Assembly: GCF_037902255.1 (NCBI RefSeq)
Contig: NZ_CP147990.1
Span: forward strand, 3,480,001 to 3,512,000
Source: Candidatus Electrothrix sp. GW3-4
GTDB taxonomy: Bacteria; Desulfobacterota; Desulfobulbia; Desulfobulbales; Desulfobulbaceae
Direction: 5' to 3'
DNA length: 32,000 bases
Below the pieces are notes generated by a model. That model made no database searches, was not told where the DNA came from, and saw only the letters and a list, made by a program, of their open reading frames with translations. Every line of letters begins with the position of its first letter. The stretch's first letter is position 1. Shown here piece by piece: positions 2,973 through 31,252 of this stretch. The position numbers and the translations under genes are program-made.

Positions 2973-4094
2973 ATGGCGCATTTAAAGGGAAAAATCCGTC
3001 CCATACTGATTATTGATCTGGCGAAACACTTTGGTGGAGTCGAGGTGCGTGTGCTTTCCATGGCCAAAGAACTTCAGGGACAGCAGCCCTATGCAGTGGC
3101 GACCTTGAAAGACTCTCCCCTGCATCGTAAGCTCGAAGCCGCCAGCCTGACCTGTCTGCCGGTTCCCTTTGCACGCAGCGACCCACGTCTTTTGTTTTTT
3201 TTTCGCAAGGTTCTTCGCCAACAAGGCTTTGGCGTCATTGACGCACACAATGTCCAATCCCAGTTTTGGGGGCACCTAGCTGCCTGCCTGACGGGTGGAA
3301 TTACCAAGGTCACGACCGTACACAGTGCCTATCGAATTGAGCACAACAGGTCGTTAAAGGGGTTGTTTTATGAACAAATTTTACGAATGAACTCCTGGCT
3401 CGGTGCAAGGTTCATTGCGGTGACCGGTGCTGTACATGATTACCTACACGATGCCGGGATCCCCCTCAAACGGATAAGCCTTGTTCAAAACAGTATCCGG
3501 CTGCCATCCCAACCCAACCGAACGAACAGGGATGCCCTCAGGAAATCTTTAGGATGGCCAGAAAAATCCTATATTATCATAGTAGTTGCTCGACTTGAGC
3601 CGGTCAAGGGACATACCTTTTTGCTTGAGGCGTTAGGCAGGCTGGTCGATAGGCAGCCGTTGTTGCGCTGCCTGATTGTAGGAGAGGGGCGTAGCCGCGC
3701 CGAACTTGTCAGTCAGGTTGAGCAGATAAAACTCCAAAAAATAGTCCATTTCACCGGGTTCCGCGACGATATCCCTGCGTTGCTGGGAGCCAGCGATCTC
3801 TTTTGCCTCCCCTCTCTCTCCGAAGGCTTACCTTATGCTTTATTGGAAAGCGTTGCCCACAACGTTCCTCTCCTGGTGACCCAGGTCGGCGGCATGGCAG
3901 AACTGTTACAACACGGAAGGACCGCATTCTTAGTGCCGCCTTCAGACCCGGATGCATTGGCTGAAGGAATACAGTGGTGCCTTGATCATCCAGAGGAAAC
4001 ATCCGCTATGAGCCAAAAGGCTCATGAATGGCTCAGACAAACATTTAATCCCCAAAAAATGATTGATCAAACCTTGACCATCTACCAAAGTTGA
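2973..4094 (+). CDS. Glycosyltransferase family 4 (GT-B, group 1)
   Basis: 373 aa with the EX7E motif EGLPYALLES and typical GT4 length and layout. The stop codon TGA (4092-4094) is formed across the junction with the IS element. Confidence 0.9.
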   Translation: MAHLKGKIRPILIIDLAKHFGGVEVRVLSMAKELQGQQPYAVATLKDSPLHRKLEAASLTCLPVPFARSDPRLLFFFRKVLRQQGFGVIDAHNVQSQFWGHLAACLTGGITKVTTVHSAYRIEHNRSLKGLFYEQILRMNSWLGARFIAVTGAVHDYLHDAGIPLKRISLVQNSIRLPSQPNRTNRDALRKSLGWPEKSYIIIVVARLEPVKGHTFLLEALGRLVDRQPLLRCLIVGEGRSRAELVSQVEQIKLQKIVHFTGFRDDIPALLGASDLFCLPSLSEGLPYALLESVAHNVPLLVTQVGGMAELLQHGRTAFLVPPSDPDALAEGIQWCLDHPEETSAMSQKAHEWLRQTFNPQKMIDQTLTIYQS

Positions 4095-6042: not shown

Positions 6043-8087
6043 ATCGGGTCAGAGGGAGCCGAAGCTCCCGTCTGCCCACAGAACCGTGCGTACGGGTCCG
6101 TACACGGCTCCTCATGTTATACTCTTATCCATCGATGAAGAGGTAACCAGTGCGAATGCTTTTGATCTGACCGTATCTCTTGTCCCTTTTCCTGGATGAA
6201 CCAAGCAACAGGGTATGCTTTTTCTAACGCAAAAGTATGAGATAAGGCCCATCGACCATTATTCGAAAATGCCGCGTTTGCTGCACTCTTTCGGCTCACC
6301 CCTCTTTTCTTCAGCTTCTTGAACAGATGGCGACGCCTTTTCTGTTGATCCACCAGACGCGCACGGAGTCTTCTCCGTATATGCGCTTCGATTTTGCTGA
6401 GTTGAGATGGATATTCCGTCATCCGATAATACCCGGCCCAACCGACATACCAACGGTTTATCCGCTTAATCGTTTTCTCCAGCGGCAGATACGTGCCTCG
6501 CGGTGTCAACTCTTTGACTTTCTGCATGGCCGTTTTCATCGATTTCGCTGAAATAGCCAGCGTTCCTTCAATGATAGTCATTCCGAGAAATTTTACCTCG
6601 CTGGAATGAGCGACCCTGCTCTTATCACGGTTGATCTTCAGCTTGAGTTTCTTTTCAATAAATTTACTGATACTGCTCATGACACGCTCTGCCGCTTTGG
6701 GCGAGCGAACATAGATATTGCAATCATCAGCAAAGCGGCAAAACTCAAGCCCCCGCCGTTCAAGCTCCTTGTCCAGTTCATCAAGCACTACATTGCTCAA
6801 CAGCGGACTCAGAGGGCTTCCCTGGGGAGTGCCTTTCTCACTGAGCATTACATCACCGTCCTTCATTATCCCGCTCCGCAGAATCATGCCGATTAAACGG
6901 AGTACCCGTTTATCATCCACATGCCCTGAAAGAAGATAAATCAAACGATCATGGTTCACTCGGTCGAAAAATTTCGACAAGTCGATGTCCACCACATACT
7001 CTTTCCCGCTCTTCACAATCCGCTGGCCGGATTCCACCGCCTGACGTTGACTACGTCCGGGACGAAAACCAAAGCTGTGATCGGAAAATACCGGATCAAG
7101 TATGGGCTCCAAAAGCTGTTTGATCGTCGCATGAACAACCCTGTCTTTTACGCAGGGTACCCCAAGCAAACGAACACCTGCACCTTTGCCCGGCTTGGGT
7201 ATTTCAACCCGTTGCACCGGACTCGGTTTATACCTCCAGCCTGCAAGTTCTTCCGCAAGCTGTTCTATCTCTTCTTTCAGGCTGCTGCCGAATTCTTCGA
7301 CCGTTACCCCGTCTACTCCGGGAGAGCCGCCGTTCTTCTTCACTGCCTTGAAACCTGCACGCAAAAATCGCACGTCGCAGAGTTTCTCAAAGAGACTTCT
7401 TTCATCAACAAACAGTTCCCTTTGTCTCATTTCACCTTCCATTTTGCGCTGTTATTTCATCACTCCGCACAGTCTCTGTTGTCATCGGAAGTATACGTAT
7501 CCGCTTCAAAGACAGTTCCTACGGCTGAGCTCATAACAACATCTATTCTGAGAGTCCGGTTCTGATAACATGTTCCGCCCTTCGGCTCCGGCATTGCTGC
7601 CACTTTCCGATAGTTTTACCCTCAGATACGTCACCGCATCCTCATCGGCTATCGATTTTACGCCTACTATGGCTTCATCTGAAAACCCTCTGTCCATAAC
7701 AGAAACATTGCTGCTCCGCTTAGGGCACGGCTGTCGCAGTTACAACCGGCCCGGCATACAGACGGCTCTTCACCGGGTAAGATCACGAGCTTTCATTGCC
7801 CACCCACCTCCTCTACTCTACGGAATACGGAAAGGATATCGGGCTTCGGCAGTCGAGGTTGCCTCGCCCTTTCCGTAAAGCCTGCCAGAGGTTCGCACCG
7901 AGCTTGGGTGACAAATTTGATTCAGGCTTCCTTCAGATCCGTCATTGGCTCACAGTTACCGGGATATCCCTCCTCGGGCAGCTCCTGTGAGTTTCTTCAG
8001 GCACCCTTACCTTCGTCTACATATTCCCTCCTTTCAGGGGTTATGGCTGGACTTGCACCAGCTAGTTCGTGACCATGCCGGTCACAC
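6043..8087 (-). mobile_element. Group II intron, copy 1 (2,045 bp)
   Basis: On the minus strand the 5' end reads GUGUGACCGGCAUGG (plus-strand CACAC at 8083-8087). Domain V is at 6081-6110 (GAGCCGUGUACGGACCCGUACGCACGGUUC) with the AGC triad and a 2-nt bulge. Domain VI is at 6043-6077 with a UUCG loop and a bulged A at 6049, 7 nt from the 3' end. The intron ends ...CCCGAU. The RT/maturase ORF lies in domain IV. Confidence 0.95.
6117..7442 (-). CDS. Group II intron reverse transcriptase/maturase (no endonuclease domain)
   Basis: RT motifs RVEIPKPGKGAGVRLLGVPCVKDRVV, FGFRPGRSQ, VVDIDLSKFFDRVNH, QGSPLSPLLSNV and FADD (FCRFADDCNIYV). The maturase/X region is RINRWYVGWAGYY. At 441 aa there is no HNH/En domain after X. 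The ORF stops 6 nt before domain V. Confidence 0.97.
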   Translation of the reverse strand: MEGEMRQRELFVDERSLFEKLCDVRFLRAGFKAVKKNGGSPGVDGVTVEEFGSSLKEEIEQLAEELAGWRYKPSPVQRVEIPKPGKGAGVRLLGVPCVKDRVVHATIKQLLEPILDPVFSDHSFGFRPGRSQRQAVESGQRIVKSGKEYVVDIDLSKFFDRVNHDRLIYLLSGHVDDKRVLRLIGMILRSGIMKDGDVMLSEKGTPQGSPLSPLLSNVVLDELDKELERRGLEFCRFADDCNIYVRSPKAAERVMSSISKFIEKKLKLKINRDKSRVAHSSEVKFLGMTIIEGTLAISAKSMKTAMQKVKELTPRGTYLPLEKTIKRINRWYVGWAGYYRMTEYPSQLSKIEAHIRRRLRARLVDQQKRRRHLFKKLKKRGVSRKSAANAAFSNNGRWALSHTFALEKAYPVAWFIQEKGQEIRSDQKHSHWLPLHRWIRV

Positions 8088-9530: not shown

Positions 9531-11575
9531 ATCGGGTCAGAGGGAGCCGAAGCTCCCGTCTGCCCACAGAACCGTGCGTACGGGTCCGTACACGGCTCCT
9601 CATGTTATACTCTTATCCATCGATGAAGAGGTAACCAGTGCGAATGCTTTTGATCTGACCGTATCTCTTGTCCCTTTTCCTGGATGAACCAAGCAACAGG
9701 GTATGCTTTTTCTAACGCAAAAGTATGAGATAAGGCCCATCGACCATTATTCGAAAATGCCGCGTTTGCTGCACTCTTTCGGCTCACCCCTCTTTTCTTC
9801 AGCTTCTTGAACAGATGGCGACGCCTTTTCTGTTGATCCACCAGACGCGCACGGAGTCTTCTCCGTATATGCGCTTCGATTTTGCTGAGTTGAGATGGAT
9901 ATTCCGTCATCCGATAATACCCGGCCCAACCGACATACCAACGGTTTATCCGCTTAATCGTTTTCTCCAGCGGCAGATACGTGCCTCGCGGTGTCAACTC
10001 TTTGACTTTCTGCATGGCCGTTTTCATCGATTTCGCTGAAATAGCCAGCGTTCCTTCAATGATAGTCATTCCGAGAAATTTTACCTCGCTGGAATGAGCG
10101 ACCCTGCTCTTATCACGGTTGATCTTCAGCTTGAGTTTCTTTTCAATAAATTTACTGATACTGCTCATGACACGCTCTGCCGCTTTGGGCGAGCGAACAT
10201 AGATATTGCAATCATCAGCAAAGCGGCAAAACTCAAGCCCCCGCCGTTCAAGCTCCTTGTCCAGTTCATCAAGCACTACATTGCTCAACAGCGGACTCAG
10301 AGGGCTTCCCTGGGGAGTGCCTTTCTCACTGAGCATTACATCACCGTCCTTCATTATCCCGCTCCGCAGAATCATGCCGATTAAACGGAGTACCCGTTTA
10401 TCATCCACATGCCCTGAAAGAAGATAAATCAAACGATCATGGTTCACTCGGTCGAAAAATTTCGACAAGTCGATGTCCACCACATACTCTTTCCCGCTCT
10501 TCACAATCCGCTGGCCGGATTCCACCGCCTGACGTTGACTACGTCCGGGACGAAAACCAAAGCTGTGATCGGAAAATACCGGATCAAGTATGGGCTCCAA
10601 AAGCTGTTTGATCGTCGCATGAACAACCCTGTCTTTTACGCAGGGTACCCCAAGCAAACGAACACCTGCACCTTTGCCCGGCTTGGGTATTTCAACCCGT
10701 TGCACCGGACTCGGTTTATACCTCCAGCCTGCAAGTTCTTCCGCAAGCTGTTCTATCTCTTCTTTCAGGCTGCTGCCGAATTCTTCGACCGTTACCCCGT
10801 CTACTCCGGGAGAGCCGCCGTTCTTCTTCACTGCCTTGAAACCTGCACGCAAAAATCGCACGTCGCAGAGTTTCTCAAAGAGACTTCTTTCATCAACAAA
10901 CAGTTCCCTTTGTCTCATTTCACCTTCCATTTTGCGCTGTTATTTCATCACTCCGCACAGTCTCTGTTGTCATCGGAAGTATACGTATCCGCTTCAAAGA
11001 CAGTTCCTACGGCTGAGCTCATAACAACATCTATTCTGAGAGTCCGGTTCTGATAACATGTTCCGCCCTTCGGCTCCGGCATTGCTGCCACTTTCCGATA
11101 GTTTTACCCTCAGATACGTCACCGCATCCTCATCGGCTATCGATTTTACGCCTACTATGGCTTCATCTGAAAACCCTCTGTCCATAACAGAAACATTGCT
11201 GCTCCGCTTAGGGCACGGCTGTCGCAGTTACAACCGGCCCGGCATACAGACGGCTCTTCACCGGGTAAGATCACGAGCTTTCATTGCCCACCCACCTCCT
11301 CTACTCTACGGAATACGGAAAGGATATCGGGCTTCGGCAGTCGAGGTTGCCTCGCCCTTTCCGTAAAGCCTGCCAGAGGTTCGCACCGAGCTTGGGTGAC
11401 AAATTTGATTCAGGCTTCCTTCAGATCCGTCATTGGCTCACAGTTACCGGGATATCCCTCCTCGGGCAGCTCCTGTGAGTTTCTTCAGGCACCCTTACCT
11501 TCGTCTACATATTCCCTCCTTTCAGGGGTTATGGCTGGACTTGCACCAGCTAGTTCGTGACCATGCCGGTCACAC
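9531..11575 (-). mobile_element. Group II intron, copy 2 (2,045 bp, reads identical to copy 1)
   Basis: Same sequence as 6043-8087 shifted by exactly 3,488 bp. All six-frame ORFs in the track are duplicated with identical protein strings. The flanks diverge immediately outside both ends. Confidence 0.95.
9605..10930 (-). CDS. Group II intron reverse transcriptase/maturase (copy 2)
   Basis: The 441-aa protein is identical to the ORF at 6117-7442. Confidence 0.97.
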   Translation of the reverse strand: MEGEMRQRELFVDERSLFEKLCDVRFLRAGFKAVKKNGGSPGVDGVTVEEFGSSLKEEIEQLAEELAGWRYKPSPVQRVEIPKPGKGAGVRLLGVPCVKDRVVHATIKQLLEPILDPVFSDHSFGFRPGRSQRQAVESGQRIVKSGKEYVVDIDLSKFFDRVNHDRLIYLLSGHVDDKRVLRLIGMILRSGIMKDGDVMLSEKGTPQGSPLSPLLSNVVLDELDKELERRGLEFCRFADDCNIYVRSPKAAERVMSSISKFIEKKLKLKINRDKSRVAHSSEVKFLGMTIIEGTLAISAKSMKTAMQKVKELTPRGTYLPLEKTIKRINRWYVGWAGYYRMTEYPSQLSKIEAHIRRRLRARLVDQQKRRRHLFKKLKKRGVSRKSAANAAFSNNGRWALSHTFALEKAYPVAWFIQEKGQEIRSDQKHSHWLPLHRWIRV

Positions 11576-12004
11576 CTCCTCGGTCATTTTGCCCTGCTTC
11601 GCACTCATTTTTCTCTGCTCGGCATGATATCCCCCATCTCTTTTGTCCTTTCCCTCCCCTTCTCTCTGATTCTTCATTGTTTCAGGAGAGATTTTCTGCA
11701 CGGTAAAGAGGATTGGTTAGTCGGCACAGCCGGACCTCTTCCTGTTCCCCCTGGTTTTCAGGAGAAAGCGGGGCGGATAAAAAACGACAAGCCCCGAATA
11801 CATCGACAACATTTTTCATCCATCTTATGGTTTTCGCTTGCCTATGCAATCTTTTCAATGTTTGCTATCCATAGGACGGAATAAAGCCTAAAACTCACCC
11901 CTCGTCTCATCGCGATCAGCAAGAAGGCAAAGATTATTTCTGCGCCATGATGCGCAAGCTCATGCATGTCGCTTTCAGATGAATTGAAATCAAGGAGAAG
12001 AAAA

Positions 12005-12535
12005 ATGAGAAAGACAATCAAGGTACTGGCTGGAGCGTTTCTGGTGGCATCATTCCTGATGGCGGGCGAGCAGTCCCTTGCAAAGCAAAACACTGTTGCC
12101 CCACAAGCCATGACCGCAGCCCACAATCAATGGAGAGCCAAATTAGGCATCCCTTCTCTTAGATGGTCCGATCAACTTGCCCATGCTGCCCAAAAATGGG
12201 CTGACCAGCTGGCAAGAACCTCCTGTAGACCCATGCAGAGCAGATCCGGCTACGGAGAGAATCTTTACTGGGCCAGCCCAATAATCTCCTCGAACGGGAC
12301 CAGAAGACTGCAAAACCTCTCGGAGCAGGATGTCGTAGCGATCTGGACCGAGGAGGCCCACAGCTATAACTATGCCAACAACAGCTGTCGAGGCAGATGC
12401 GGCAACTACACCCAGATTATCTGGAAGGATACGCAGGAAGTCGGATGCGGTATGGCGGTCTGCAGGGATAAGGCCCAAATCTGGGTGTGCAATTATTCTC
12501 CTCCCGGTAATGTTATCGGTCGAAAACCATATTAA
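12005..12535 (+). CDS. Secreted CAP/SCP/PR-1-like domain protein
   Basis: The start is moved to the ATG at 12005 (SD AAGGAG 7 nt upstream, then the signal peptide MRKTIKVLAGAFLVASFLMAG). CAP motifs GENLYW, NYTQIIWKDTQEVGCG and CNYSPPGN. Confidence 0.85.
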   Translation: MRKTIKVLAGAFLVASFLMAGEQSLAKQNTVAPQAMTAAHNQWRAKLGIPSLRWSDQLAHAAQKWADQLARTSCRPMQSRSGYGENLYWASPIISSNGTRRLQNLSEQDVVAIWTEEAHSYNYANNSCRGRCGNYTQIIWKDTQEVGCGMAVCRDKAQIWVCNYSPPGNVIGRKPY

Positions 12536-12925: not shown

Positions 12926-15900
12926 ATGACCATCACCCGCTTATACCGTCGCATCGACGCAACCCGCGCCTATTGCTTTCATATAGAATCCTCCCGCGCC
13001 CTGACTGACCAGGAACTGCAGCAGCTGCGCCTGTTGCTGGCAGACGGCTTCCTGGCTGACACAATTTCTCAAGCCCCGATCCTGGAAGGGGATCGAGTCG
13101 TCGAGGTCGGGCCGCGGCTCAACTTTGCCACGGCCTGGTCATCCAACATGGTCTCCATCTGCCGGGCCACCGGGCTGAACTGCGTCAGTAGGATAGAGCG
13201 CTCCCGCCGTTACCTGGTCCCTGAGGACCAGGACATACAGGCCTTCATCGCAGACCATCACGACCGGATGACCGAATGCCCCTACCCAGAGCCCCTGACT
13301 AGCTTTGAGACTGGCGTGGAGCCGGAACCTGTCTACGAAGTAGATCTCATGGGCAAGGGACCGGATGCCCTGCTCGACCTGCCCGGCATCTCTATGGACG
13401 ATTGGGATCGTAATTTTTATTACGATTATTTCGTCAACAAGCATCAGCGCAACCCCACCATTGTCGAGATCATGGATCTCAACAACGCCAACTCCGAGCA
13501 CTCCCGGCACGGTTATTTCGGTGGCAAGCAGATTGTAGACGGTGAGGAGCAGGAAGGTACCCTGTTCCAGGTGGTCAAAGAGCCCCTGAGTGCCCATCCC
13601 AAGGGCTCATTAGTGGCCTTTAAGGATAACTCCAGTGTCGTGGCTGGGCATGAAATCACCACCCTCCTGCCCAAGGAGCCAGGCCAGCCTTCGCCCCTGA
13701 AGGCGACCGAGGCCGTGTACCATCCCCTGCTCACCGCTGAGACCCATAACTTCCCCACCGGCGTGGCCCCTTTTCCTGGGGCAGAGACCGGCACAGGTGG
13801 TCGTATTCGCGACGTGCAGGGCACAGGCAAGGGCGGCTTTGTCATAGCAGGTACCGCAGGCTATTGCGTGGCCAACCTGCATATCCCCGGTTACGAGCTG
13901 CCCTGGGAAGAGCAGTACGCCTGCCCCTCTAATCTGGCCTCAGCCCTGACCATCGAGATTGAGGCCAGCAATGGTGCCTCTGATTACGGCAATAAATTCG
14001 GCGAGCCCCTGATCCAGGGTTTTACCCGCTCCTTTGACCTGCGTCTGGACAACGGTGAGCGCTGGGGCTTCCTCAAGCCCATCATGTTTACCGGCGGTCT
14101 CGGCCAGATTGACGACCGGCATATAGAAAAGGAAAAAGAAGAAAAGGGTATGCTCATCGTCCAGGTGGGTGGCCCGGCCTACCGGGTCGGTTTCGGTGGT
14201 GGGGCAGCCTCGTCCATGCTCCAGGGCGAGAACGCCGAAGAACTGGATTTCAACGCGGTCCAACGCGGTGATGCTGAGATGGAGCAGAAGATGAACCGGG
14301 TCATCCGGGCCTGTAATGAGATGGGCGATAAGACCCTGATCGAGGTCATCCATGACCAGGGTGCTGGCGGACCAGCCAATGTCCTCAAGGAGCTGGTGGA
14401 GCATTCCGGGGGACGCATCGAAATCCGCAAGATGCGGGTGGGCGATCCCACCATGTCCGTGTTGGAGATCTACGTAGCCGAGTACCAGGAGCGGAACGGC
14501 TTCCTGATCAGCCCGGAGAATATCGAACAATTCCTGGCCATCTGCGACCGGGAAAAGGTGGGCTGCGAGGTCCTGGGAGAGGTTACCGGCGACCTGCGCT
14601 TTGTCGTTCATGATGAGCAGGATGACACCACTCCAGTAGATGTTGAGCTGAATGAGGTCCTGGGAGACATCCCGCAGAAGACCTTTGAGGATCAGCGTAT
14701 TCCCGTTGGAGAAAACACAAACTTCGTCCCGACAGGGGATGTCCGTGACCATCTGCGTAACGTTCTCCATCTGGTCTCGGTAGGCTCCAAGCGTTTCCTC
14801 ACCAACAAGGTGGACCGGGCTGTCACCGGGCTGATCGCCCAACAACAATGCTGCGGTCCTCTTCAGCTCACGGTTGCCGATGTGGCTGTGGTGGCCCAAT
14901 CGCATTTCGGGCTCACTGGCGGAGCTACTGCCATCGGTGAGCAGCCCATCAAGATGCTGGTTGATCCGGCGGCCGGGGCGAGGATGGCCGTAGGTGAGGC
15001 CTGGACCAACCTGGTCTGGGCCAGGATTGATGACCCGGATCAGGTGAAATGCTCAGCCAACTGGATGTGGGCTCCCAAACTTAAGGGCGAGGGTGCAGCT
15101 CTGAACGACGCGGCTCGGGCCATGCGTGATGCCATGATCGCCACTGGTATGGCCGTGGACGGCGGCAAGGACTCGCTCTCAATGGCCACCGTGGTCGGAG
15201 AAGAAACCGTGAAATCCCCCCGCGAACTGGTTATCTCGGCCTATGCAGCCATGAGCGATATCCGCAAGGTCATCACCCCGGATATCAAAGAGCCGGGCTC
15301 GATCCTGCTGCTCATCGAGCTGGCTCCGGGTAAGACGCGGCTGGGCGGTTCCGCTCTGGCCCAGACCCTGGGCAGCCTGGGCAATGAGAGCCCGGACATG
15401 GATGATCCGGCCCTGCTCAGGCGGGCCTTTGCTGCCATCCAGCAGCTCATTGATCAGGGGCTGATCCTGGCTGGTCATGACCGTTCTGACGGCGGCCTGA
15501 TCACCACCCTGTTGGAAATGGCCTTTTCCGGTAACTGTGGACTGAAGCTTGCTCTAGAAGGCGAAGCGGAAGCCCTGCCAGCCCTGTTCAACGAGGAACT
15601 GGGTCTGGTGCTGGAGTGCCGTCAGGATGAGCTCTATCAGGTGCAGGAAATCCTCGCTGCGGCCGAGGTGGGGAGCACGCTGCTGGGCAACAGCAGTACG
15701 GACAAACAGATCCGCATCCGATACAACGACCAGTCCGTCCTGAGTGAGGACATGCGCGTTCTGCGGCAGGAATGGGAGGAGACCAGTTATCAGCTGGAAC
15801 GCCTCCAGATGAACCCGACCTGTGCTGATGAAGAAAAGGCCAATATCTTTGACCGCAAGGCCCCGGCCTACAGCCTGCCCTTCCGCCTGGAGCCTGCGTC

Positions 15901-16717
15901 CCAGGCCCTGCTGGCCGCCACCAATAAGCCCAAGGTGGCCATCCTCCGTGATGAGGGATCCAACTCGGACCGGGAGATGAGCTCTGCCTTCTACGCGGCG
16001 GGCTTTGAGCCCTGGGACATCACCATGACCGACCTGCTGGCCGGGCGCATCGACCTGGACGGCTTTCGGGGCATTGCTGCGGTGGGTGGCTTTTCTTACG
16101 CCGACGTACCCGAGTCCGCTAAAGGCTGGGCAGCGACCATCCTCTTTAATGATCGGCTCAAGGAGATGTTCAACGCCTTCTACAACCGACCGGACACCTT
16201 CACCCTGGGGATCTGCAATGGCTGCCAGCTCTTCGGCCTGCTGGGCTGGGTACCCTGGCAGGGCCTGAGCGCCGAGACCCAACCGCGTTTTATCCACAAC
16301 AGCTCGGGGCGCTTCGAGTCCCGCTGGACCACGGTACGGGTGCAGGACAGCCCGGCTATCATGCTCCAGGGAATGTCCGAGTTGGTCTTTGGTATCCATG
16401 TGGATCACGGCGAGGGCAAGCTGCACTTCCCGGATGCGACGGTGCGGGCAGAAGTGATCGGGCAAAATTTGGTCCCGCTGGTCTACACCGATGACAACGG
16501 TGCTGCCACGGAGCAGTATCCTTTCAACCCCAACGGCTCGTCGGACGGCTTTGCCGGGCTCTGCTCCCCGGACGGTCGCCATCTGGCTATGATGCCCCAT
16601 CCGGAACGGGCCTTCCTGCCCTGGCAATGCCATTGGCTGCCGCAGGAGATGCAGGGGCTAGAGGTATCACCCTGGTTACAGATGTTCCGCAATGCCTATG
16701 CGTGGTGTGTGGGATAG
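12926..16717 (+). CDS. purL: Phosphoribosylformylglycinamidine (FGAM) synthase, single-chain large form
   Basis: 1,263 aa with AIR-synthase-like repeats and a C-terminal glutamine amidotransferase domain. The catalytic Cys is in LGICNGCQLF and the His/Glu pair in MMPHPER. Confidence 0.98.
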   Translation: MTITRLYRRIDATRAYCFHIESSRALTDQELQQLRLLLADGFLADTISQAPILEGDRVVEVGPRLNFATAWSSNMVSICRATGLNCVSRIERSRRYLVPEDQDIQAFIADHHDRMTECPYPEPLTSFETGVEPEPVYEVDLMGKGPDALLDLPGISMDDWDRNFYYDYFVNKHQRNPTIVEIMDLNNANSEHSRHGYFGGKQIVDGEEQEGTLFQVVKEPLSAHPKGSLVAFKDNSSVVAGHEITTLLPKEPGQPSPLKATEAVYHPLLTAETHNFPTGVAPFPGAETGTGGRIRDVQGTGKGGFVIAGTAGYCVANLHIPGYELPWEEQYACPSNLASALTIEIEASNGASDYGNKFGEPLIQGFTRSFDLRLDNGERWGFLKPIMFTGGLGQIDDRHIEKEKEEKGMLIVQVGGPAYRVGFGGGAASSMLQGENAEELDFNAVQRGDAEMEQKMNRVIRACNEMGDKTLIEVIHDQGAGGPANVLKELVEHSGGRIEIRKMRVGDPTMSVLEIYVAEYQERNGFLISPENIEQFLAICDREKVGCEVLGEVTGDLRFVVHDEQDDTTPVDVELNEVLGDIPQKTFEDQRIPVGENTNFVPTGDVRDHLRNVLHLVSVGSKRFLTNKVDRAVTGLIAQQQCCGPLQLTVADVAVVAQSHFGLTGGATAIGEQPIKMLVDPAAGARMAVGEAWTNLVWARIDDPDQVKCSANWMWAPKLKGEGAALNDAARAMRDAMIATGMAVDGGKDSLSMATVVGEETVKSPRELVISAYAAMSDIRKVITPDIKEPGSILLLIELAPGKTRLGGSALAQTLGSLGNESPDMDDPALLRRAFAAIQQLIDQGLILAGHDRSDGGLITTLLEMAFSGNCGLKLALEGEAEALPALFNEELGLVLECRQDELYQVQEILAAAEVGSTLLGNSSTDKQIRIRYNDQSVLSEDMRVLRQEWEETSYQLERLQMNPTCADEEKANIFDRKAPAYSLPFRLEPASQALLAATNKPKVAILRDEGSNSDREMSSAFYAAGFEPWDITMTDLLAGRIDLDGFRGIAAVGGFSYADVPESAKGWAATILFNDRLKEMFNAFYNRPDTFTLGICNGCQLFGLLGWVPWQGLSAETQPRFIHNSSGRFESRWTTVRVQDSPAIMLQGMSELVFGIHVDHGEGKLHFPDATVRAEVIGQNLVPLVYTDDNGAATEQYPFNPNGSSDGFAGLCSPDGRHLAMMPHPERAFLPWQCHWLPQEMQGLEVSPWLQMFRNAYAWCVG

Positions 16718-19271: not shown

Positions 19272-20483
19272 ATGTCTCAGGAAATAATCACTCTCGCTGA
19301 TCGTGTATTACAGGTACCGCCCTCCCCTACCTTAGCGATCAATGCCAAGGCCAAGGCACTGAAAGCGGCAGGTGAGGATATTCTGAATTTCAGCGTTGGT
19401 GAACCGGATTTCGACACCCCGAAGCATGTGTGCGAGGCCGGTAAAAAGGCCATCGATGACGGGCATACCCGCTATACAGCGGTCCCTGGCATCCCGGAGC
19501 TACGGGAGGCTATCTGCATGCGTTTTAAGGCGGATCATGGCTGGGAGTATAGCCCGGAAGAGATCCAGGTCTGCTGTGGGGGCAAGCACGGTCTGTACAA
19601 TATCTTTCAGGCCATGCTCAACCCCGGTGATGAGGTGCTGATCCCGGCTCCCTACTGGGTCTCCTACCCGCCCATGGTCCAGCTGGCTGGCGGCATACCG
19701 GTCATTGTTCCTCTGGACGAATCTATGGATTTTGATCTGAACCCGGACACCCTGGCTGCCAAGGCAACTGACAAGACCCGTGCCATTTTTCTCAACAGCC
19801 CCTCTAATCCCACAGGTTCTGTCTTTTCCACCACCGCCCTTGAAGCCGTCGCCAAGATGGCTTTAGAACGAGGCTGGCTGATTATTACCGATGATATCTA
19901 TGAGACCGTCACCTATGTAGACGGCAAACTGCCCCATATCCTGGACGTGGAGCCTGCCCTGAAGGAGCAGACCGTTGTCCTGAATGGGGTTTCCAAGTCC
20001 TTTGCCATGACCGGTTGGCGAATCGGCTACTCTGCTGGCCCGGCCCATCTGATCAAGGCCATGAACAAGATACAGAGCCAGTCGACCTCCAACCCGGCTG
20101 CACCGTCCCAGTATGCTGCCTTGGCAGCCTTGACCGGCCCCCAGGATTTTCCCGAGGTGATGAAAAAGGCTTTCCTGCCCCGCCGTGATTTTTTTGTCAG
20201 CGACCTGGAATCCATTGAAGGCGTTACCTGCGTGAATCCCAGCGGGGCCTTTTATGTGTTCCCAAATTTTTCTGCCTATTACGGTAAATCTTTTAATGGA
20301 AAAGAGCTGAAAGACTCTGCTGATATGTCAGCCTACTTTCTGGATGAAGCCAAGGTTGCTTCTGTGCCGGGCATTGCCTTTGGTTCTGATGACTTTGTGC
20401 GCTTCTCCTTTGCTACTTCTATGGAGGTTATTAAGGAAGGAATGGGACGGATTAAGACGGCTCTGGCTGAGCTTGAGGGCTGA
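19272..20483 (+). CDS. Class I/II pyridoxal-phosphate-dependent aminotransferase (aspartate aminotransferase-like)
   Basis: The start is moved to the ATG at 19272 (MSQEIITLADRV...). The PLP-lysine motif is NGVSKSFAMTGWRIGY. N-terminal FSVGEPDFDTP. About 403 aa. Confidence 0.93.
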   Translation: MSQEIITLADRVLQVPPSPTLAINAKAKALKAAGEDILNFSVGEPDFDTPKHVCEAGKKAIDDGHTRYTAVPGIPELREAICMRFKADHGWEYSPEEIQVCCGGKHGLYNIFQAMLNPGDEVLIPAPYWVSYPPMVQLAGGIPVIVPLDESMDFDLNPDTLAAKATDKTRAIFLNSPSNPTGSVFSTTALEAVAKMALERGWLIITDDIYETVTYVDGKLPHILDVEPALKEQTVVLNGVSKSFAMTGWRIGYSAGPAHLIKAMNKIQSQSTSNPAAPSQYAALAALTGPQDFPEVMKKAFLPRRDFFVSDLESIEGVTCVNPSGAFYVFPNFSAYYGKSFNGKELKDSADMSAYFLDEAKVASVPGIAFGSDDFVRFSFATSMEVIKEGMGRIKTALAELEG

Positions 20484-20493
20484 GCTTACAACA

Positions 20494-20512
20494 GGGCGAC
20501 CGCCGGTCGCCC
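20494..20512 (+). other. GC-rich hairpin 11 nt after the aminotransferase stop (terminator-like, no U-tract)
   Basis: GGGCGACC-gcc-GGTCGCCC, followed by CTACCC. Confidence 0.4.
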
Positions 20513-20648
20513 CTACCCAAGTATCATCCACCCTCCGTCCCGAACGTCTGCTCCAGCTTGTTGAGCAAGGCATCATCACGGGGCAGAGTGATATTGTCTT
20601 GACGGGCAAGGTGCTGGCTTTGCTTCCTTTATGCTGAATCGTTCTCAC

Positions 20649-20885
20649 CTTGTCAATCATGACAAAACATAAGATTTTTACCATCCTGCGATAGAAAAGC
20701 ATGGTTCTTCCCTGGTGCAGGACGATGCTGAACCTGTTTTACGGCGTCCTGCACCTCCTCTGAATCATTCAAAGGGAGGAAATCATGACGGTGCGCTATA
20801 ATTTTGCCATCATTCGGTAGTGTTTTGTCATGATTCGACACAAATTGATCATCATTCACAAGGGGACGGTCATTCTTCGATAGTG
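20649..20885. repeat. Repeat-dense non-coding module: 15-bp perfect inverted repeat pair, four tandem 21-bp units and further copies of a TTTTGYCATSATT motif
   Basis: AATCATGACAAAACA (20655-20669) is the exact reverse complement of TGTTTTGTCATGATT (20821-20835). Tandem units start at 20802, 20823, 20844 and 20865, and all share CAT..(A/C)TTC. Related copies are at 20676-20687, 20763-20774 and 20781-20793. Confidence 0.7.
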
Positions 20886-21035
20886 CAGAGCCGTTCAGCA
20901 CAGGGGGATGATGGTTCGTATCTTGTGACGGAAGATAATTCCCTGGAGGATAGCCCTTCGCCCCCTGTGACGCAGGATAATCCCCTTGGGGAGAATGCCT
21001 CGGATGCAGGGGAGGAAGGGGCGGAGAAGGGAAAG

Positions 21036-21347
21036 CTAGCTACGGAATTTGCGCATCTTCTTCACCAGCTCGTTGTCCTTGCCCAGCAGACCGGAAATCA
21101 GGTCGGCAACGTCGGAGGCATCCTTGTAAGCATCGGTAAGAGTCTCGTTGGCCTGGGTCGTGGCTTCCTGCGCCTTGGCAGCCGCTTCCTGCTGGGTGAT
21201 TTCCGCGCTGTCCGCATCCTGCTTTTTCACCTTGAGGCTGTCCAGCCGATCAGCCGGGTTGAAGCCCTTGTCTTGCAGGGTATCCTGCTCTTCTTGGACA
21301 AGCGAGATCATCTGCGCGATAAAATCGCGTTTTTCTGCTTCAGTCAT
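21036..21347 (-). CDS. Hypothetical 103-aa helical protein (Ala/Glu/Gln/Lys/Asp-rich), no family recognised
   Basis: Excellent SD AAGGAGA 6 nt before the ATG. Starts 35 nt after the stop of the 561-aa gene on the same strand. Confidence 0.75.
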   Translation of the reverse strand: MTEAEKRDFIAQMISLVQEEQDTLQDKGFNPADRLDSLKVKKQDADSAEITQQEAAAKAQEATTQANETLTDAYKDASDVADLISGLLGKDNELVKKMRKFRS

Positions 21348-21382
21348 TGTGCTCTCCTTGGTTTGAGGTTTTGGGTTGCGTT

Positions 21383-23068
21383 CTACGATGTTATATGTTT
21401 GAAGAGCAAGCCGGTTGGTGAGGCCCTCCGAGCTTTTTCCTTCACCGCAATCTCAGAAAACTTTGTTTTGATGTCTTTGAAGTTTGGTACTCCACCCGTC
21501 ATACCGAGGAGTGCTGAAGCCGCGCCAAGTTCTGGACTTCCGGTAAAGGCGGCAGTGACAGCTAATGTGCCGGTCGCAACAAAACTGCCGATATCGATCC
21601 CGTAAAGTTTCAGCTTTTTGCGTTTTGCCTCAAGCAATTTTTGTTGATGCTCACGGAATGCCTTGTCAATATTCTCTACTACTTGATCAGCGGTACGGAA
21701 ATAGTTGTTTGGGTTAACCTTGACAAGTTCACTGACACCGTGCCCTAAAATCTCTCGGATTTCTTCAGCATGTCCATGTTGACGAACCTCCAGAACAGTT
21801 TTCGGCGGAACGTTTCCAAGCCACGCCAAGTTGTTTTCACTTTCAGTAACAAGGGCGCGGGCGATATGCATACTTTGCTCGCGTCGTTCATCTATTGAAT
21901 GTGGGGCTGCGTTATATTCCAGCAGCCATGTGTAATAGAGCCAGGAGATCTCTGTATTGATCAACGGGGTTCCACCGAGGAGCAATGCATTATCCTGAGT
22001 GGCGAGTGCCTGAAGTGTTCGATCAGCACATGCATTTAATACATGGTGCCCAGCAATTCTAGAATCTAAGTCCGGTCTCACAATAGGGTACTCGGATATT
22101 AGACCATGTAATTGCGCATGTGGATTCCGATTCCATCCAGCAGAGAATAGGAATTTGTCAGCACCTTTGATCTCACGCAAAACTTGCTCAACTGTAGTCA
22201 GGCTGTTGCAAAAGTCTTTGAAATACTCAATTGAGTCAAAATCACGTCCAAAGAGGTATTGAGCATGTTTCAACATTGCAGGTTCGGAACGTTTTCCTAT
22301 ATGCTGAATGCAAGTTCTCTCTATCTCATTGGTATTCGCTAGCACTAAGGCGATCGGGGGATTTATGTCAGCTATTGCCAGCTCCCGATAGGACATGGCT
22401 GTAAGAACATGCTCCACAACCATCTCAGTGAACTCTTGGGCTGGCATAGCCTTCAGTAGAGGAGCTGTGCGCATGACTGGACATGGCAAAATAATGGTAT
22501 CGATGTACAGCCCTGCGGTGGAGACTACATTTTCCCGATATGAGGGAAACAAGTCACCTGCAAAGGTCGCCTTGAGTTGCCGCCCATCTTGGAGATGATA
22601 TGCGCCTGCATCGCTGACAGATTGCCAAAACTCCTTTAACTGCTCGGCAATTTCAGGAATGACAGATACGATTTGCTTTACAAATTTTGAATCCTGAGCC
22701 ATCCCCATTGCAACTTGTTCTGGCGTTGCTCCCGCTTTGCTCATCTGTTCATAGAGCCATCCAAGCTGATCGAAGAGAAAAGAGAAATAGGTGTCTTGAA
22801 TCTGCGCCAGACTTACAGCTTCTTTTGCCTTTTCTCTTTGTTTCATACCCCAAATAGCCAATGTCGCACTCCGTATACGTCCGTCAACCGAGTTCGGATC
22901 AACTAAGCCATCCGGGCGAAGGCGCACTGCGGACCAGCTTCGCATGAAATCGTCGGCGAGGTGCGGTGCAAGATGCATTTCTCCACCCTCAATCTTTTCT
23001 TTAAGCAGAAAAACTCTATCAGTGAGGTCTTGAATTTCTTCTTCTGTGTATGTTTTTGAAGACATCAC
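21383..23068 (-). CDS. Hypothetical 561-aa protein, no family recognised; C-terminal Gly/Ala/Thr-rich hydrophobic hairpin
   Basis: Long uninterrupted ORF with AGGA upstream of GTG 23068 / ATG 23065. No P-loop, HExxH, DxD or nuclease motif was seen. The C-terminus reads YGIDIGSFVATGTLAVTAAFTGSPELGAASALLGMTGGVPNF. Confidence 0.9.
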   Translation of the reverse strand: MMSSKTYTEEEIQDLTDRVFLLKEKIEGGEMHLAPHLADDFMRSWSAVRLRPDGLVDPNSVDGRIRSATLAIWGMKQREKAKEAVSLAQIQDTYFSFLFDQLGWLYEQMSKAGATPEQVAMGMAQDSKFVKQIVSVIPEIAEQLKEFWQSVSDAGAYHLQDGRQLKATFAGDLFPSYRENVVSTAGLYIDTIILPCPVMRTAPLLKAMPAQEFTEMVVEHVLTAMSYRELAIADINPPIALVLANTNEIERTCIQHIGKRSEPAMLKHAQYLFGRDFDSIEYFKDFCNSLTTVEQVLREIKGADKFLFSAGWNRNPHAQLHGLISEYPIVRPDLDSRIAGHHVLNACADRTLQALATQDNALLLGGTPLINTEISWLYYTWLLEYNAAPHSIDERREQSMHIARALVTESENNLAWLGNVPPKTVLEVRQHGHAEEIREILGHGVSELVKVNPNNYFRTADQVVENIDKAFREHQQKLLEAKRKKLKLYGIDIGSFVATGTLAVTAAFTGSPELGAASALLGMTGGVPNFKDIKTKFSEIAVKEKARRASPTGLLFKHITS

Positions 23069-23364
23069 TGTTCATCCTGAGAGTTGATATGTTTGATCTG
23101 GAGCTGCTGTGTTCGGGAAGGCATGGCGTTCTCCTGATTGAGGAAATATTTGCCGGAAGAAGAGAAGTATCCTGAAAAGATACCCAATAATCAGCATCGG
23201 TTCAATATACTTCTCAATCTTTTCGAGCTGGAAAAACGGCATGCTTCATATACCCAAAAAAAAGACACTTCGCGTACTCCTCATCTTGCCTTCCCTCTCT
23301 CCTCATATCATGCTATACCATAGGGCATGCTAGCAACCTACCAACCAAAACGTTGACACACCCA

Positions 23365-23829
23365 ATGGATCTCTTAGCAGAATTCTCCCAACTTGTTCAT
23401 GAACTCAACAAAGAACAGATAGACTATGCCCTTTGCGGTGGTCTGGCTATGGCAGTCTATACATTTCCTCGGGCAACGCTTGATATTGATATCCTGATTG
23501 AGCCGGAGAGCCTGGAACAAACCAAAAAGATCGCCGAACGGCTTGGATTCGACTTTGATGCTGGCTTGATGCGTTTGAGCGGAGATGCAATACAAATCTA
23601 CCGACTGACGAAAACAGCACCGGATAAGGGCGACACCTTGATGCTGGATATGCTGCTGGTGACTCTGGAAATGACAACCGTCTGGGAAAGCAGGCAAAGG
23701 GTTTCCTGGGAAGGAGGAAAGCTACCAGTGGTTTCTCCAAGGGGGCTTATCGAATTAAAATCAAAACGACTGAGCGGTCAGGATCAGGATGATATCACGA
23801 ATCTGCGGAGCTTATTAGATGAAGACTGA
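23365..23829 (+). CDS. Minimal nucleotidyltransferase-fold protein (pol-beta superfamily)
   Basis: YALCGGLAMAVY...LDIDILI fits the hG[GS]-x(9-13)-DhD NTase signature. The C-terminal LIELKSKRLSGQDQDDITNL resembles the KxxxGRxKDxxD tail common in small NTases. The start is either the ATG at 23365 or the track's TTG at 23353. No clear SD. Confidence 0.75.
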   Translation: MDLLAEFSQLVHELNKEQIDYALCGGLAMAVYTFPRATLDIDILIEPESLEQTKKIAERLGFDFDAGLMRLSGDAIQIYRLTKTAPDKGDTLMLDMLLVTLEMTTVWESRQRVSWEGGKLPVVSPRGLIELKSKRLSGQDQDDITNLRSLLDED

Positions 23830-24007
23830 CATGAGCCCGGAGGCAGTTACTGCACGGCTAAAAAAAACAAGCGAGCTGAGAAGCTTATGCATCTCATTAG
23901 GTGGCGACAGATTAAAAAAAGAGCTACTGAAAAAGGCTACTGTGCGAGCAAAGCAGGTAGAACAACAGTCTCAGCATGACAGGATAGCCCACCTAACACA
24001 GGACTGA
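23819..24007 (+). CDS. Small hypothetical protein (62 aa, or 58 aa from the ATG at 23831), overlapping/abutting the NTase stop
   Basis: The ATG at 23819 overlaps the NTase 3' end by 11 nt. The alternative ATG at 23831 lies 1 nt after the TGA. The protein is basic and helical (MSPEAVTARLKKTSELRSLCISLGG...). Confidence 0.5.
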   Translation: MKTDMSPEAVTARLKKTSELRSLCISLGGDRLKKELLKKATVRAKQVEQQSQHDRIAHLTQD

Positions 24008-24156
24008 CGTTAAACAAAACCGCTCCACATCCACCAACCCTCTATCTGTCGTCTTCAACTCCAGAATAACCGGCAAGGCCATAAAAGAAAGCTGCATGAT
24101 ATAAAGAGAGGTCCGCTCTCCTTGAAGGAGTAGAGATTGAAATAAAATGACTATTT

Positions 24157-30506: not shown

Positions 30507-30706
30507 AATGAGCAGCTCCGTCCCAACGGGCGGTGGTCAATATGATAGGCAACAGTCAGCGCGGGCTATCAGCCCCCCGGCACCTCGCAATACATTTTCT
30601 TCCATAACAGCAGCAACCAAGGGACTAATTATCTTATTCTAGCATATCATTTCATGACTTCGCCAGTTTAAAGCGCGTTGGGGTTCGTCCCTGTTTTTTA
30701 GCAATG

Positions 30707-30972
30707 AAAGGCCCAGCACAGAGGTCTTCCGCAGAATTGCCCTGCTGGGCTTATCGTGGCTGAGGGATGGTTGAAAACCCCGGCAATTCGTGCTGAAATC
30801 GAATTAGATGAATGGGTGGTGATGCCCAATCATTTTCACGGGATTGCGGTGAGTAGGGATATGGGAGCGACAAATCGGCATGGTGCGAAAAAGCAAAATA
30901 CGGGGTTCACCGTCGGGCCGATGACCGACCGGGCGAACGATGTTCCTGGCGATTTAACGGGCGACCGCCGTA
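30707..30972 (+). pseudogene. Fragment of a REP-associated tyrosine transposase (RAYT / IS200-like Y1 family)
   Basis: ...PAGLIVAEGWLKTPAIRAEIELDEWVVMPNHFHGI carries the HUH motif (HFH) and its usual preceding context. The N-terminal ~50 aa and the C-terminal catalytic-Tyr region are absent. The rest of the track ORF (30756-31040) has no RAYT-like sequence. The exact frame around the C-run near 30777-30781 should be rechecked. Confidence 0.55.
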
Positions 30973-31152
30973 CTCAAACAACATCTGGTTCAGGGGTACA
31001 CCTTGCATCAAAAACGGCTGGCGGAAAAGGGTGCTGCTGAGATCAGGCAGGTGCTGGACTTATTGAGCAACACCTTGGAAAACCACGATCTGGTCAGCGA
31101 TGACGGCAGGATACCTGAGCTGACAGAAGTACGGGAGGCGGGCGCTCCCTGA
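30973..31152 (+). pseudogene. Internal fragment of a RhuM-like (virulence RhuM family) gene
   Basis: Hand translation LKQHLVQGYTLHQKRLAEKGAAEIRQVLDLLSNTLENHDLVSDDGRIPELTEVREAGAP*. It resembles, from memory, the L..L..GY.LN.KRL...G..E......L..TL..H.LVTDEG segment of RhuM-family proteins. There is no start codon and no N-terminal domain. Confidence 0.4.
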
Positions 31153-31252
31153 TGATCAAGCCTTGGTCGCCTCCAGCGCACCGGAGCAAAAAGACCTGCT
31201 TATCCGCTTGGCGGTTAATCTGATAAGCGTCTGAAACCGCCCTGCGGACAGC

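Follow-up and report, generated by a model that had tools for sequence, protein, structure and literature searches.

Does a run of unassignable genes between two ordinary loci form one undescribed system, or have unrelated genes come to lie side by side? The question is raised by a block of DNA in the cable bacterium Candidatus Electrothrix sp. GW3-4, located within a 32,000-nt window of contig NZ_CP147990.1 (4.64 Mb; positions 3,480,001-3,512,000, forward strand). The block (20484-24156; coordinates are those of the whole window unless a comparison contig is named) is bounded by genes for a class I/II aminotransferase and a MacB/FtsX permease. An original prediction, made from the window sequence without database searches, proposed it as the best candidate for an undescribed defence or addiction system. 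It contains a large gene, whose 560-aa product is the main subject of this work, a 103-aa gene, a small nucleotidyltransferase (NTase) gene and an overlapping 62-aa open reading frame (ORF). Comparison with related genomes resolves the block into a mosaic accessory slot of at least three independent modules with separate histories and not one system. The explanation that we favour as a whole, with somewhat better than even confidence, is such a mosaic slot holding a solo gene for a single-protein anti-phage defence factor.

Gene content of the block

The minus strand carries the large ORF (561 aa, 21383-23068) and the 103-aa ORF (21036-21347). The NTase ORF (23353-23829) and the 62-aa ORF (23819-24007), which overlap by 11 nt, lie on the plus strand. 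All ORFs of the original prediction are present at their positions, and Pfam matches identify both flanking genes as it had proposed. The product of the large ORF is 100% identical to a hypothetical protein of GW3-4. The true start of the gene is likely to be the ATG at 23065, which gives 560 aa as in the NCBI record, while an exact look-up of the 561-aa version with a GTG start returned no record. Homologues of the NTase begin at the position corresponding to 23365, leaving 154 aa (23365-23829).

None of the four block proteins attains the curated cut-off of any Pfam or NCBIfam model or matches a PADLOC or PHROGs model at E < 0.001. The sole family-level signal in the block comes from sub-threshold matches of the NTase to NTP_transf_5, AbiEii and DUF6036. 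No housekeeping family was hit, in agreement with the predicted lack of resemblance to housekeeping functions. An Rfam scan of the block found no RNA family, and a promoter and terminator scan gave counts no better than those for shuffled sequence.

A mosaic accessory slot

The gene order in E. aestuarii is purL, a cyclic nucleotide (cNMP)-binding gene, the aminotransferase gene, the NTase gene, a 58-aa ORF, RtcB, a 150-aa gene and MacB. Nucleotide homology between the two genomes ends at 20479 and restarts at 23364, at points which are 75 nt apart in E. aestuarii. From these breaks we take the NTase pair to be resident, 20480-23363 to be a 2.9-kb insertion relative to E. aestuarii, and RtcB with the 150-aa gene to be missing from GW3-4. 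The missing segment of 1.9 kb (10563-12503 of the E. aestuarii contig L027, without a counterpart) falls at the MacB junction (24008-24156). The genes for RtcB (RNA ligase) and the 150-aa protein themselves occupy L027 10732-12456, aligned against 23927-24156 of the window, and the location of RtcB beside the NTase module may be functionally meaningful. The synteny comparison suggested with the original prediction cuts both ways: the insertion is absent from E. aestuarii, which supports the accessory nature of the block, and no conserved position and content across all relatives was seen, but the NTase pair is already there, which argues against a single block.

Blastn aligns the part of the insertion with the repeat module and the 103-aa gene (20632-21378) to Electrothrix Rat3 at 91.7% identity, and 23117-23235 to a second Rat3 stretch at 93%. 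In Rat3 these two stretches flank five other genes, coding for proteins of 146, 356 and 89 aa, TumE and a cytochrome b-like protein. E. scaldis has the same frame with a different cargo (146, 282 and 197 aa), and E. aestuarii carries, at the corresponding position after a PAS/guanylate-cyclase gene, a 146-aa HetE-N gene followed by a NACHT/FGE-sulfatase gene.

Both ends of the large gene are sharply defined. At the 3' junction, homology of the relatives stops 4 nt from its stop codon. At the 5' side, a putative promoter region (23109-23235, minus strand) is 84-93% identical in the Rat3 and E. scaldis contigs (L029 and L034), where it lies upstream of the 146-aa gene and other cargo. It is considered a promoter from its position, and the promoter scan found no convincing sigma-70 consensus in it. 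A remnant leader ORF of 19 codons (MPSRTQQLQIKHINSQDEQ, followed by a stop codon; 23065-23124, minus strand) ends with a TGA that forms, together with the ATG of the 560-aa gene, the overlap TGATG. In its first five codons (MPSRT) the leader retains the start of the 146-aa gene which holds the slot in E. scaldis. Junctions this tight, together with the TGATG remnant leader, mark the large gene as an inserted cassette that has captured the putative promoter and the leader.

In the history that we propose, the NTase gene and its overlapping small basic ORF, a toxin-antitoxin (TA)-like cassette, would already have been resident beside the aminotransferase gene. The 20480-23363 segment would then have moved in from a variable island which other Electrothrix genomes carry between a PAS/guanylate-cyclase gene and an SLT gene. 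An acquired 560-aa gene would have displaced the resident cargo between the promoter with the first five codons and the 103-aa gene, and would now rely on the captured promoter for its expression, with its translation coupled to that of the 19-codon leader. The locus is a clean case, in a variable slot of a cable bacterium, of one cargo being exchanged for another while the promoter stays in place. To our knowledge, such swapping has not been described for cable bacteria.

The PAS/guanylate-cyclase to SLT_2 interval is a second variable island of Electrothrix genomes (L027 19311-20465; L029 1362-9773; L034 3570-7882; window 30593-31232). It holds HetE-N and NACHT/FGE-sulfatase genes in E. aestuarii and TumE, PIN, HicAB, RhuM/Fic and AAA_14 genes in Rat3, while only remnants are left in GW3-4.

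The block could still be taken for one multi-gene defence or addiction system comprising the large protein, the 103-aa protein, the NTase, the 62-aa ORF and the repeats. The genes are adjacent, all their products are unassigned, and the 561-aa and 103-aa ORFs lie on the same strand 35 nt apart and are probably co-transcribed in GW3-4. Against this, each module is found without the others across genomes. In Rat3 and E. scaldis the 103-aa gene is unaccompanied by the large gene. The NTase pair stands apart from both in E. aestuarii, in Rat3 and in a distant marine genome, and the 103-aa, NTase and 62-aa genes are not near any other member of the 560-aa family examined. These comparisons largely refute the idea of a single system, and we consider it very improbable. 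What stands of the original prediction is a block of horizontally acquired accessory DNA in a variable slot, with content of the defence or addiction type. The lesson for genome scans is that adjacency in a single genome wrongly implied a four-gene system.

A narrower possibility is that the 560-aa and 103-aa proteins of GW3-4 make up a new lineage-specific pair, in which the 103-aa protein would, for instance, modulate or neutralise the large one. The two genes are co-oriented with a 35-nt gap, the junction coincides with the stop codon that ends the large gene, and close metagenomic relatives (L002, same species) retain the pair. However, the 103-aa protein is 96% identical in amino acids to its orthologue in Rat3, encoded downstream of a different gene, it has paralogues in other contexts, and the Electronema homologue of the large gene lacks a 103-aa neighbour. 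The predicted operon is thus a juxtaposition confined to this lineage, and the co-occurrence of the two genes that was to be looked for does not hold across genomes. We regard a functional pair as improbable, and the 103-aa gene has its own history and is not a conserved partner of the large gene.

The 560-aa family

The protein has over 400 close homologues, about 560 aa long and 52-58% identical, in Burkholderia, Ralstonia, Aeromonas, Pseudomonas, Xanthomonas, Cupriavidus and others. An exhaustive search gave 521 clusters at 50% identity with E < 1e-3, including 173 with E < 1e-30. The family extends over Proteobacteria, Desulfobulbia, a metagenome-assembled genome of Gastranaerophilales, plasmids and P2-like prophages. 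Wherever a source record names one of the members seen, the name is "hypothetical protein". Comparison of 77 diverse members with Pfam gave no noteworthy match; with no curated family matching the window protein or these relatives, the description of the large protein as unassignable was accurate.

Carriage of the gene is patchy: it was found in 17 of 5426 complete E. coli genomes, on 5 of 72,556 plasmids and at 17 loci among 185,579 species representatives, the last figure being limited by the search patterns. Electronema sp. PJ has a homologue with 75% identity at a different site, between unrelated genes. The gene is apparently absent from E. aestuarii, Rat3 and E. scaldis, as no close homologue from these genomes was among the hits though their proteomes are in the database.

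Conservation within the family is very strong, with a mean column identity of 65% in an alignment of 38 proteins from several classes. This could be expected of an unannotated conserved housekeeping or metabolic enzyme, and the Rossmann-like strand-loop motifs of the modelled core may also suggest an enzyme. Such a role is at odds with the patchy distribution, with the apparent absence from the three Electrothrix relatives and with a genomic context that is different in every lineage, and we give it hardly any credence.

No partner gene accompanies the family. When the products of the 103-aa, NTase and 62-aa genes and of a doubtful 82-aa ORF were compared by tblastn with the homologue loci fetched (about 20), matches were obtained in GW3-4 contigs only. 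All-against-all clustering of the neighbours at these loci revealed no family common to more than three of them. Judged by its neighbourhoods and distribution, the 560-aa gene behaves as a solo gene which lacks a conserved partner and spreads by horizontal transfer.

Genomic context of the family

In the 17 E. coli genomes the family gene stands alone between a DinI-like gene/replication gene A and the portal gene Q of P2-like prophages. The gpA-gpQ region is a cos-proximal hotspot, occupied by old and tin in P2 and by diverse validated defence genes (PMC9122126). According to a 2026 survey (PMC13586616), the locus contains nothing but genes of unknown function in 19% of P2 elements, and defence activity was shown by six of the eight unknown cargo genes assayed from the corresponding hotspot in P4 satellites. 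The enterobacterial family members resemble the recognised gpA-gpQ cargo (old, tin and a DUF4238 gene) in being the sole gene there, convergent with the portal gene Q. They differ from it in that the family is absent from PADLOC models, and the Electrothrix copy is chromosomal and located outside a prophage.

Of the 14 IMG/VR contigs that carry the family gene, 8 have it immediately adjacent to a P2-type portal gene. These members are only 31-72% identical to the E. coli protein, so the association with P2 portals would be either old or repeatedly arisen. On one viral contig (L047, 8064-9227), a family member adjoins a gene matching the PADLOC candidate system PDC-S15 with E = 6e-97.

Other copies lie in islands of mobile and defence genes. 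The Xanthomonas copy adjoins an OLD-TOPRIM/UvrD pair, a PLD-helicase and PhD/PIN genes, and a copy from a metagenomic island adjoins genes for an integrase, a resolvase, Mrr and an ADP-ribosylglycohydrolase. The Burkholderia copy is next to two integrase genes, and insertion sequences are also found among the neighbours of family copies. A PADLOC scan of 123 neighbour ORFs from 16 further loci matched ThsA/ThsB, mad2/3, AriA/AbiLi, a type IIG restriction-modification enzyme, DpdE/F, Old, two types of retron reverse transcriptase and ZorD. Pfam found three integrases and TrwB among the same ORFs. With the loci described above included, the neighbours match models of Thoeris, retron, PARIS-like, Gabija-like, Old, Dpd and restriction-modification systems. 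The family as a whole can therefore be described as hotspot cargo; for the window copy this comes down to a variable slot which holds HetE-N/NACHT genes in E. aestuarii.

The same contexts would suit cargo of mobile elements with a role other than immunity, such as superinfection exclusion at entry, anti-defence, or addiction and maintenance. Family members are found on prophages, plasmids and integrase-bounded islands, their C-terminal hydrophobic hairpin (see below) would be compatible with such functions, and the hotspots also house non-defence morons. On the other hand, P2 gpA-gpQ is dominated by defence genes, six of eight untested cargo genes at the P4 hotspot proved defensive (PMC13586616), and the family shows remote homology to parts of two validated defence systems. 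Superinfection exclusion is, moreover, itself a form of defence. We consider a non-immunity role a minor but appreciable possibility.

Remote homology and predicted structure

The window protein can be divided into an N-terminal Avs1c-like part (residues ~15-77), a helical bundle, an alpha/beta core (~195-451, the region matched by DitB in relatives), a long helix (456-509), a hydrophobic helical hairpin (~493-524) and a conserved SPTGLLF.H motif. Two PADLOC models provide the remote homology. DitB matches 28 of the 77 diverse members at E <= 0.01 (best 1.1e-10), with residues ~195-451 aligned to model positions ~95-343 of 361, and Avs1c matches 29 of the 77 over the N-terminal ~60 residues (best E = 5.3e-7).

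Aditi, the two-protein system of DitA and DitB, is said to have been described by Millman and colleagues in 2022. DitA is a DUF5677 protein (DefensePredictor supplement). The likeness of the family to DitB (PDLC03827) consists in the match of its core to ~250 of 361 model positions; like Aditi, the family has no assigned domain family or mechanism and occurs in defence contexts. The differences are considerable. Neither DitA nor any other conserved neighbour accompanies the 560-aa family: no adjacent DUF5677 gene was found at the ~20 loci or among the window neighbours, and none appeared in the Pfam scan of the 77 members. The family protein is also ~200 residues longer than DitB owing to its Avs1c-like N-terminus and C-terminal helix and hairpin. 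We interpret the DitB signal as remote homology of the family, not as membership in Aditi.

Avs1c (PDLC02160; NF041811) is the small third protein of AVAST type 1, and the N-terminal helical hairpin of the family (~15-77) covers almost the full 86-position model. In contrast to Avs1c, the domain is here fused to a large protein and has no STAND NTPase (Avs1a/b) nearby. No STAND/NACHT gene is present in the block, and none is conserved near the homologues.

The N-terminal part seems to be exchangeable. Two members of 700-750 aa (P0199 and P0225) have a common N-terminal domain of ~200-230 aa, which in P0199 replaces the Avs1c-like N-terminus, and extensions of the same length (~200-230 aa) are present in P0222, P0232, P0238, P0249, P0257 and P0266. 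The N-terminal extensions of the 700-840-aa members gave no Pfam matches. Swapping of N-terminal domains is, to our understanding, typical of sensor modules in immune proteins. The extension of P0228 has an XRE-like helix-turn-helix, and that of P0157 resembles a mis-called start.

AlphaFold modelling based on 38 close homologues reached a predicted local distance difference test score (pLDDT) of 75. With 91 diverse sequences, pLDDT was 91.3 and the predicted TM-score (pTM) 0.87. The second model places, in this order, the N-terminal helical hairpin, a bundle of long helices, the alpha/beta core and the C-terminal helices. The modelled core has four strands (166-170, 191-194, 240-242 and 367-370), and a set of near-invariant residues (G171, F174, P175, G186, Y188, D190, T191, P197, P238, P368, S375 and W376) is located in or next to them. 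W148, D172, R350, R429 and R438 are near-invariant too. The modelled C-terminus consists of a 54-residue helix (456-509) with a hydrophobic end, a hydrophobic helix (512-524), an amphipathic helix and the SPTGLLF.H tail. In 74% of the members the most hydrophobic 19-residue window falls within the last 90 residues.

Profile searches of the PDB with two alignments found nothing, nor did Foldseek at E < 0.1 against the PDB with both models and against BFVD with the first. Cyclodipeptide synthases were the best of the fold matches (probability 0.28, TM 0.42) and were treated as noise. The PADLOC and structure searches recommended with the original prediction thus leave the large protein, as before, without a significant match of its own.

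A probable role in anti-phage defence

The hotspot and island contexts, together with the remote homology to DitB and Avs1c, point to the 560-aa protein being an anti-phage defence protein, which we believe to be probably the case. It would act alone, as a single-gene defence factor. The N-terminal Avs1c-like domain and the DitB-like core would either sense infection or carry out catalysis in the conserved loops at the ends of the strands, while the long C-terminal helix and the hydrophobic glycine-rich hairpin would anchor or insert in the membrane and halt the infected cell (abortive infection). This division into a sensing or catalytic core and a membrane-engaging C-terminus is a tentative suggestion, and we would not call it likely. 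The observations agree just as well with an enzymatic effector that is simply anchored to the membrane, or with an oligomerising coiled coil.

Several points weigh against a defence role or its details. Although relatives match both PADLOC models, the window protein itself gave no match to DitB at E <= 1 and reached only E = 0.018 with Avs1c. PADLOC, Pfam and NCBIfam contain no model of the 560-aa family, and literature searches on DitB, Avs1c and WP_148119620 yielded neither a description of the family nor an experimental link of any member to phage resistance. The literature also gives no mechanism or domain assignment for Aditi, and DitB homology therefore transfers no mechanism. The hydrophobicity of the C-terminus is borderline (Kyte-Doolittle values over 19 residues of 1.39 here and, as the median, 1.65 in the family), so this segment could be an oligomerisation helix instead of a membrane hairpin. 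The enrichment of defence genes among the neighbours is a qualitative one, and neither the GW3-4 nor the Electronema copy lies in surroundings that can be recognised as those of a phage or an integrase.

With a defence role retained as the preferred explanation, a broader proposal can be made, to which we attach rather less than even confidence: the family may be an unrecognised, widespread single-protein antiviral system with a fold absent from the PDB, a stand-alone DitB relative with a swappable Avs1c-like sensor or adaptor and a membrane-active hairpin. If so, current annotation tools would be overlooking a defence system that comprises at least 500 sequence clusters. The remote links to DitB and Avs1c would offer a handle on two validated systems that lack a known mechanism, and solving the workings of the family would also explain Aditi, for which no mechanism is available, and the role of Avs1c. 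A direct test is feasible, as the E. coli homologue (WP_148119620.1; L033 7090-8763) is located alone in a well-studied prophage hotspot.

The NTase and its overlapping ORF

The 154-aa protein (23365-23829, plus strand) is a putative minimal NTase of the NTP_transf_5/AbiEii/DUF6036 kind, with scores below the Pfam gathering thresholds (AbiEii 21.1 bits against a cut-off of 22.5, NTP_transf_5 29.7 against 31.2). Its match to PDB 8an4, an AbiEii/AbiGii toxin family protein, is weak (E = 0.17). Nearly all of its 878 homologues are 154 aa long, and the one in E. aestuarii follows the aminotransferase gene at the same site.

A downstream ORF of 57-68 aa accompanies the NTase in four genomes (GW3-4, E. 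aestuarii, Rat3 and the distant marine genome), and the 11-nt overlap was verified for the window, E. aestuarii and the marine genome. The 62-aa product is basic, and its first ~36 residues are conserved, with 25 invariant positions among them. In the marine genome the pair lies within a TA array, among BrnT, PIN, HigB and PemK modules. Since the two overlapping ORFs are conserved together, move as a unit and are found among TA modules, we read the pair as a TA-like cassette, presumably of an undescribed subtype.

Its resemblance to the NTase toxins AbiEii and MenT and to MNT-HEPN consists in a minimal Pol-beta-type NTase fold with a G-G...D-x-D motif, the weak Pfam and 8an4 matches and the organisation as a two-gene overlapping cassette amid TA modules. 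It is distinguished from AbiE and MNT-HEPN by the partner, a downstream basic peptide with a conserved core of ~37 aa instead of an upstream AbiEi or a HEPN protein. No AbiEi gene was found upstream, all its family matches, including AbiEii, are below threshold, and PADLOC gave no match.

The 103-aa gene and the adjacent repeat region

The 103-aa protein is acidic and helical. Its 51 homologues come mostly from Electrothrix and Electronema, with two paralogues each in GW3-4 and E. scaldis; an exact look-up of the second GW3-4 paralogue returned no record. In Rat3 and E. scaldis the gene is accompanied by its downstream region.

This region 3' of the 103-aa gene (20560-21035, minus strand) contains a degenerate 21/42-nt direct repeat, an inverted repeat, a hairpin and the doubtful 82-aa ORF (20653-20901). 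The direct repeat is represented by two 36-nt copies, 42 nt start to start and with 75% identity, which remained below the threshold of the tandem repeat program TRF when it was run on the window. The inverted repeat is a perfect one of 15 nt (20655-20669 and 20821-20835), and the hairpin has 11 nt (20714-20755). With the single palindrome described below, these elements are too few for the "repeat-dense" module of the original prediction, which was an overstatement. We rejected the inverted repeat as a miniature inverted-repeat transposable element, as it has no further copies and one arm alone is conserved in relatives.

The copy number of the 21/42-nt repeat differs among four Electrothrix genomes (window 20560-21035; L029 5008-5490; L034 6306-6840; L035 415-930). 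One frame, coding for a P/G/Q-rich SPQGDYPASQGAKGY repeat, is open in all four of them, although it lacks a canonical start and its amino-acid divergence is near neutral. The frame might encode a repeat protein that annotation has missed or be translated by read-through, or the DNA may be non-coding. The minus strand of 20640-20850 folds with -70.7 kcal/mol (z = -4.8 relative to shuffled sequence). Rat3 and E. scaldis keep two hairpins of this segment, in which a single compensatory pair was seen, and a comparison of the segment with Rfam gave no match.

At the left edge of the insertion, directly 3' of the aminotransferase stop codon, lies a palindromic element similar to repetitive extragenic palindromes (REP; 20484-20531) with the core GGGCGACCGCCGGTCGCCC at 20494-20512. 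It is present in a single copy in the window, in four copies within 12 kb of E. scaldis (L034 5224, 5634, 5871 and 6809) and in two copies in Rat3 (L029 about 3700-3789 and 5427-5469). The palindrome is scattered in intergenic DNA of several Electrothrix genomes, and its REP-type look fits the RAYT remnant elsewhere in the window.

Base composition and other features of the window

The block was predicted to be more AT-rich than purL and the flanking genes. Its GC content of 0.479 is close to that of the window (0.505) and within the range of the neighbouring genes (0.47-0.54), so the claim fails for the flanks. The compositional argument breaks down because purL (12926-16717), chosen as its reference, is itself an outlier, with a GC content of 0.60 and a GC content at third codon positions (GC3) of 0.73, while the other window genes have GC contents of 0.45-0.56. 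Despite its far higher GC content, purL is syntenic with the E. aestuarii purL and 86% identical to it. The proposed check of GC content and codon usage gave a divided answer: the block as a whole is not distinct, but the 560-aa gene alone is, having a GC3 of 0.437, below that of every other full-length gene compared, and a slightly negative fit to the synonymous codons of the host.

Elsewhere in the window, two group II intron copies are located on the minus strand at 6043-7955 and 9531-11443, 3488 nt apart. Each contains a 441-aa ORF, and both have identical Rfam scores for Intron_gpII and group-II-D1D4-3.

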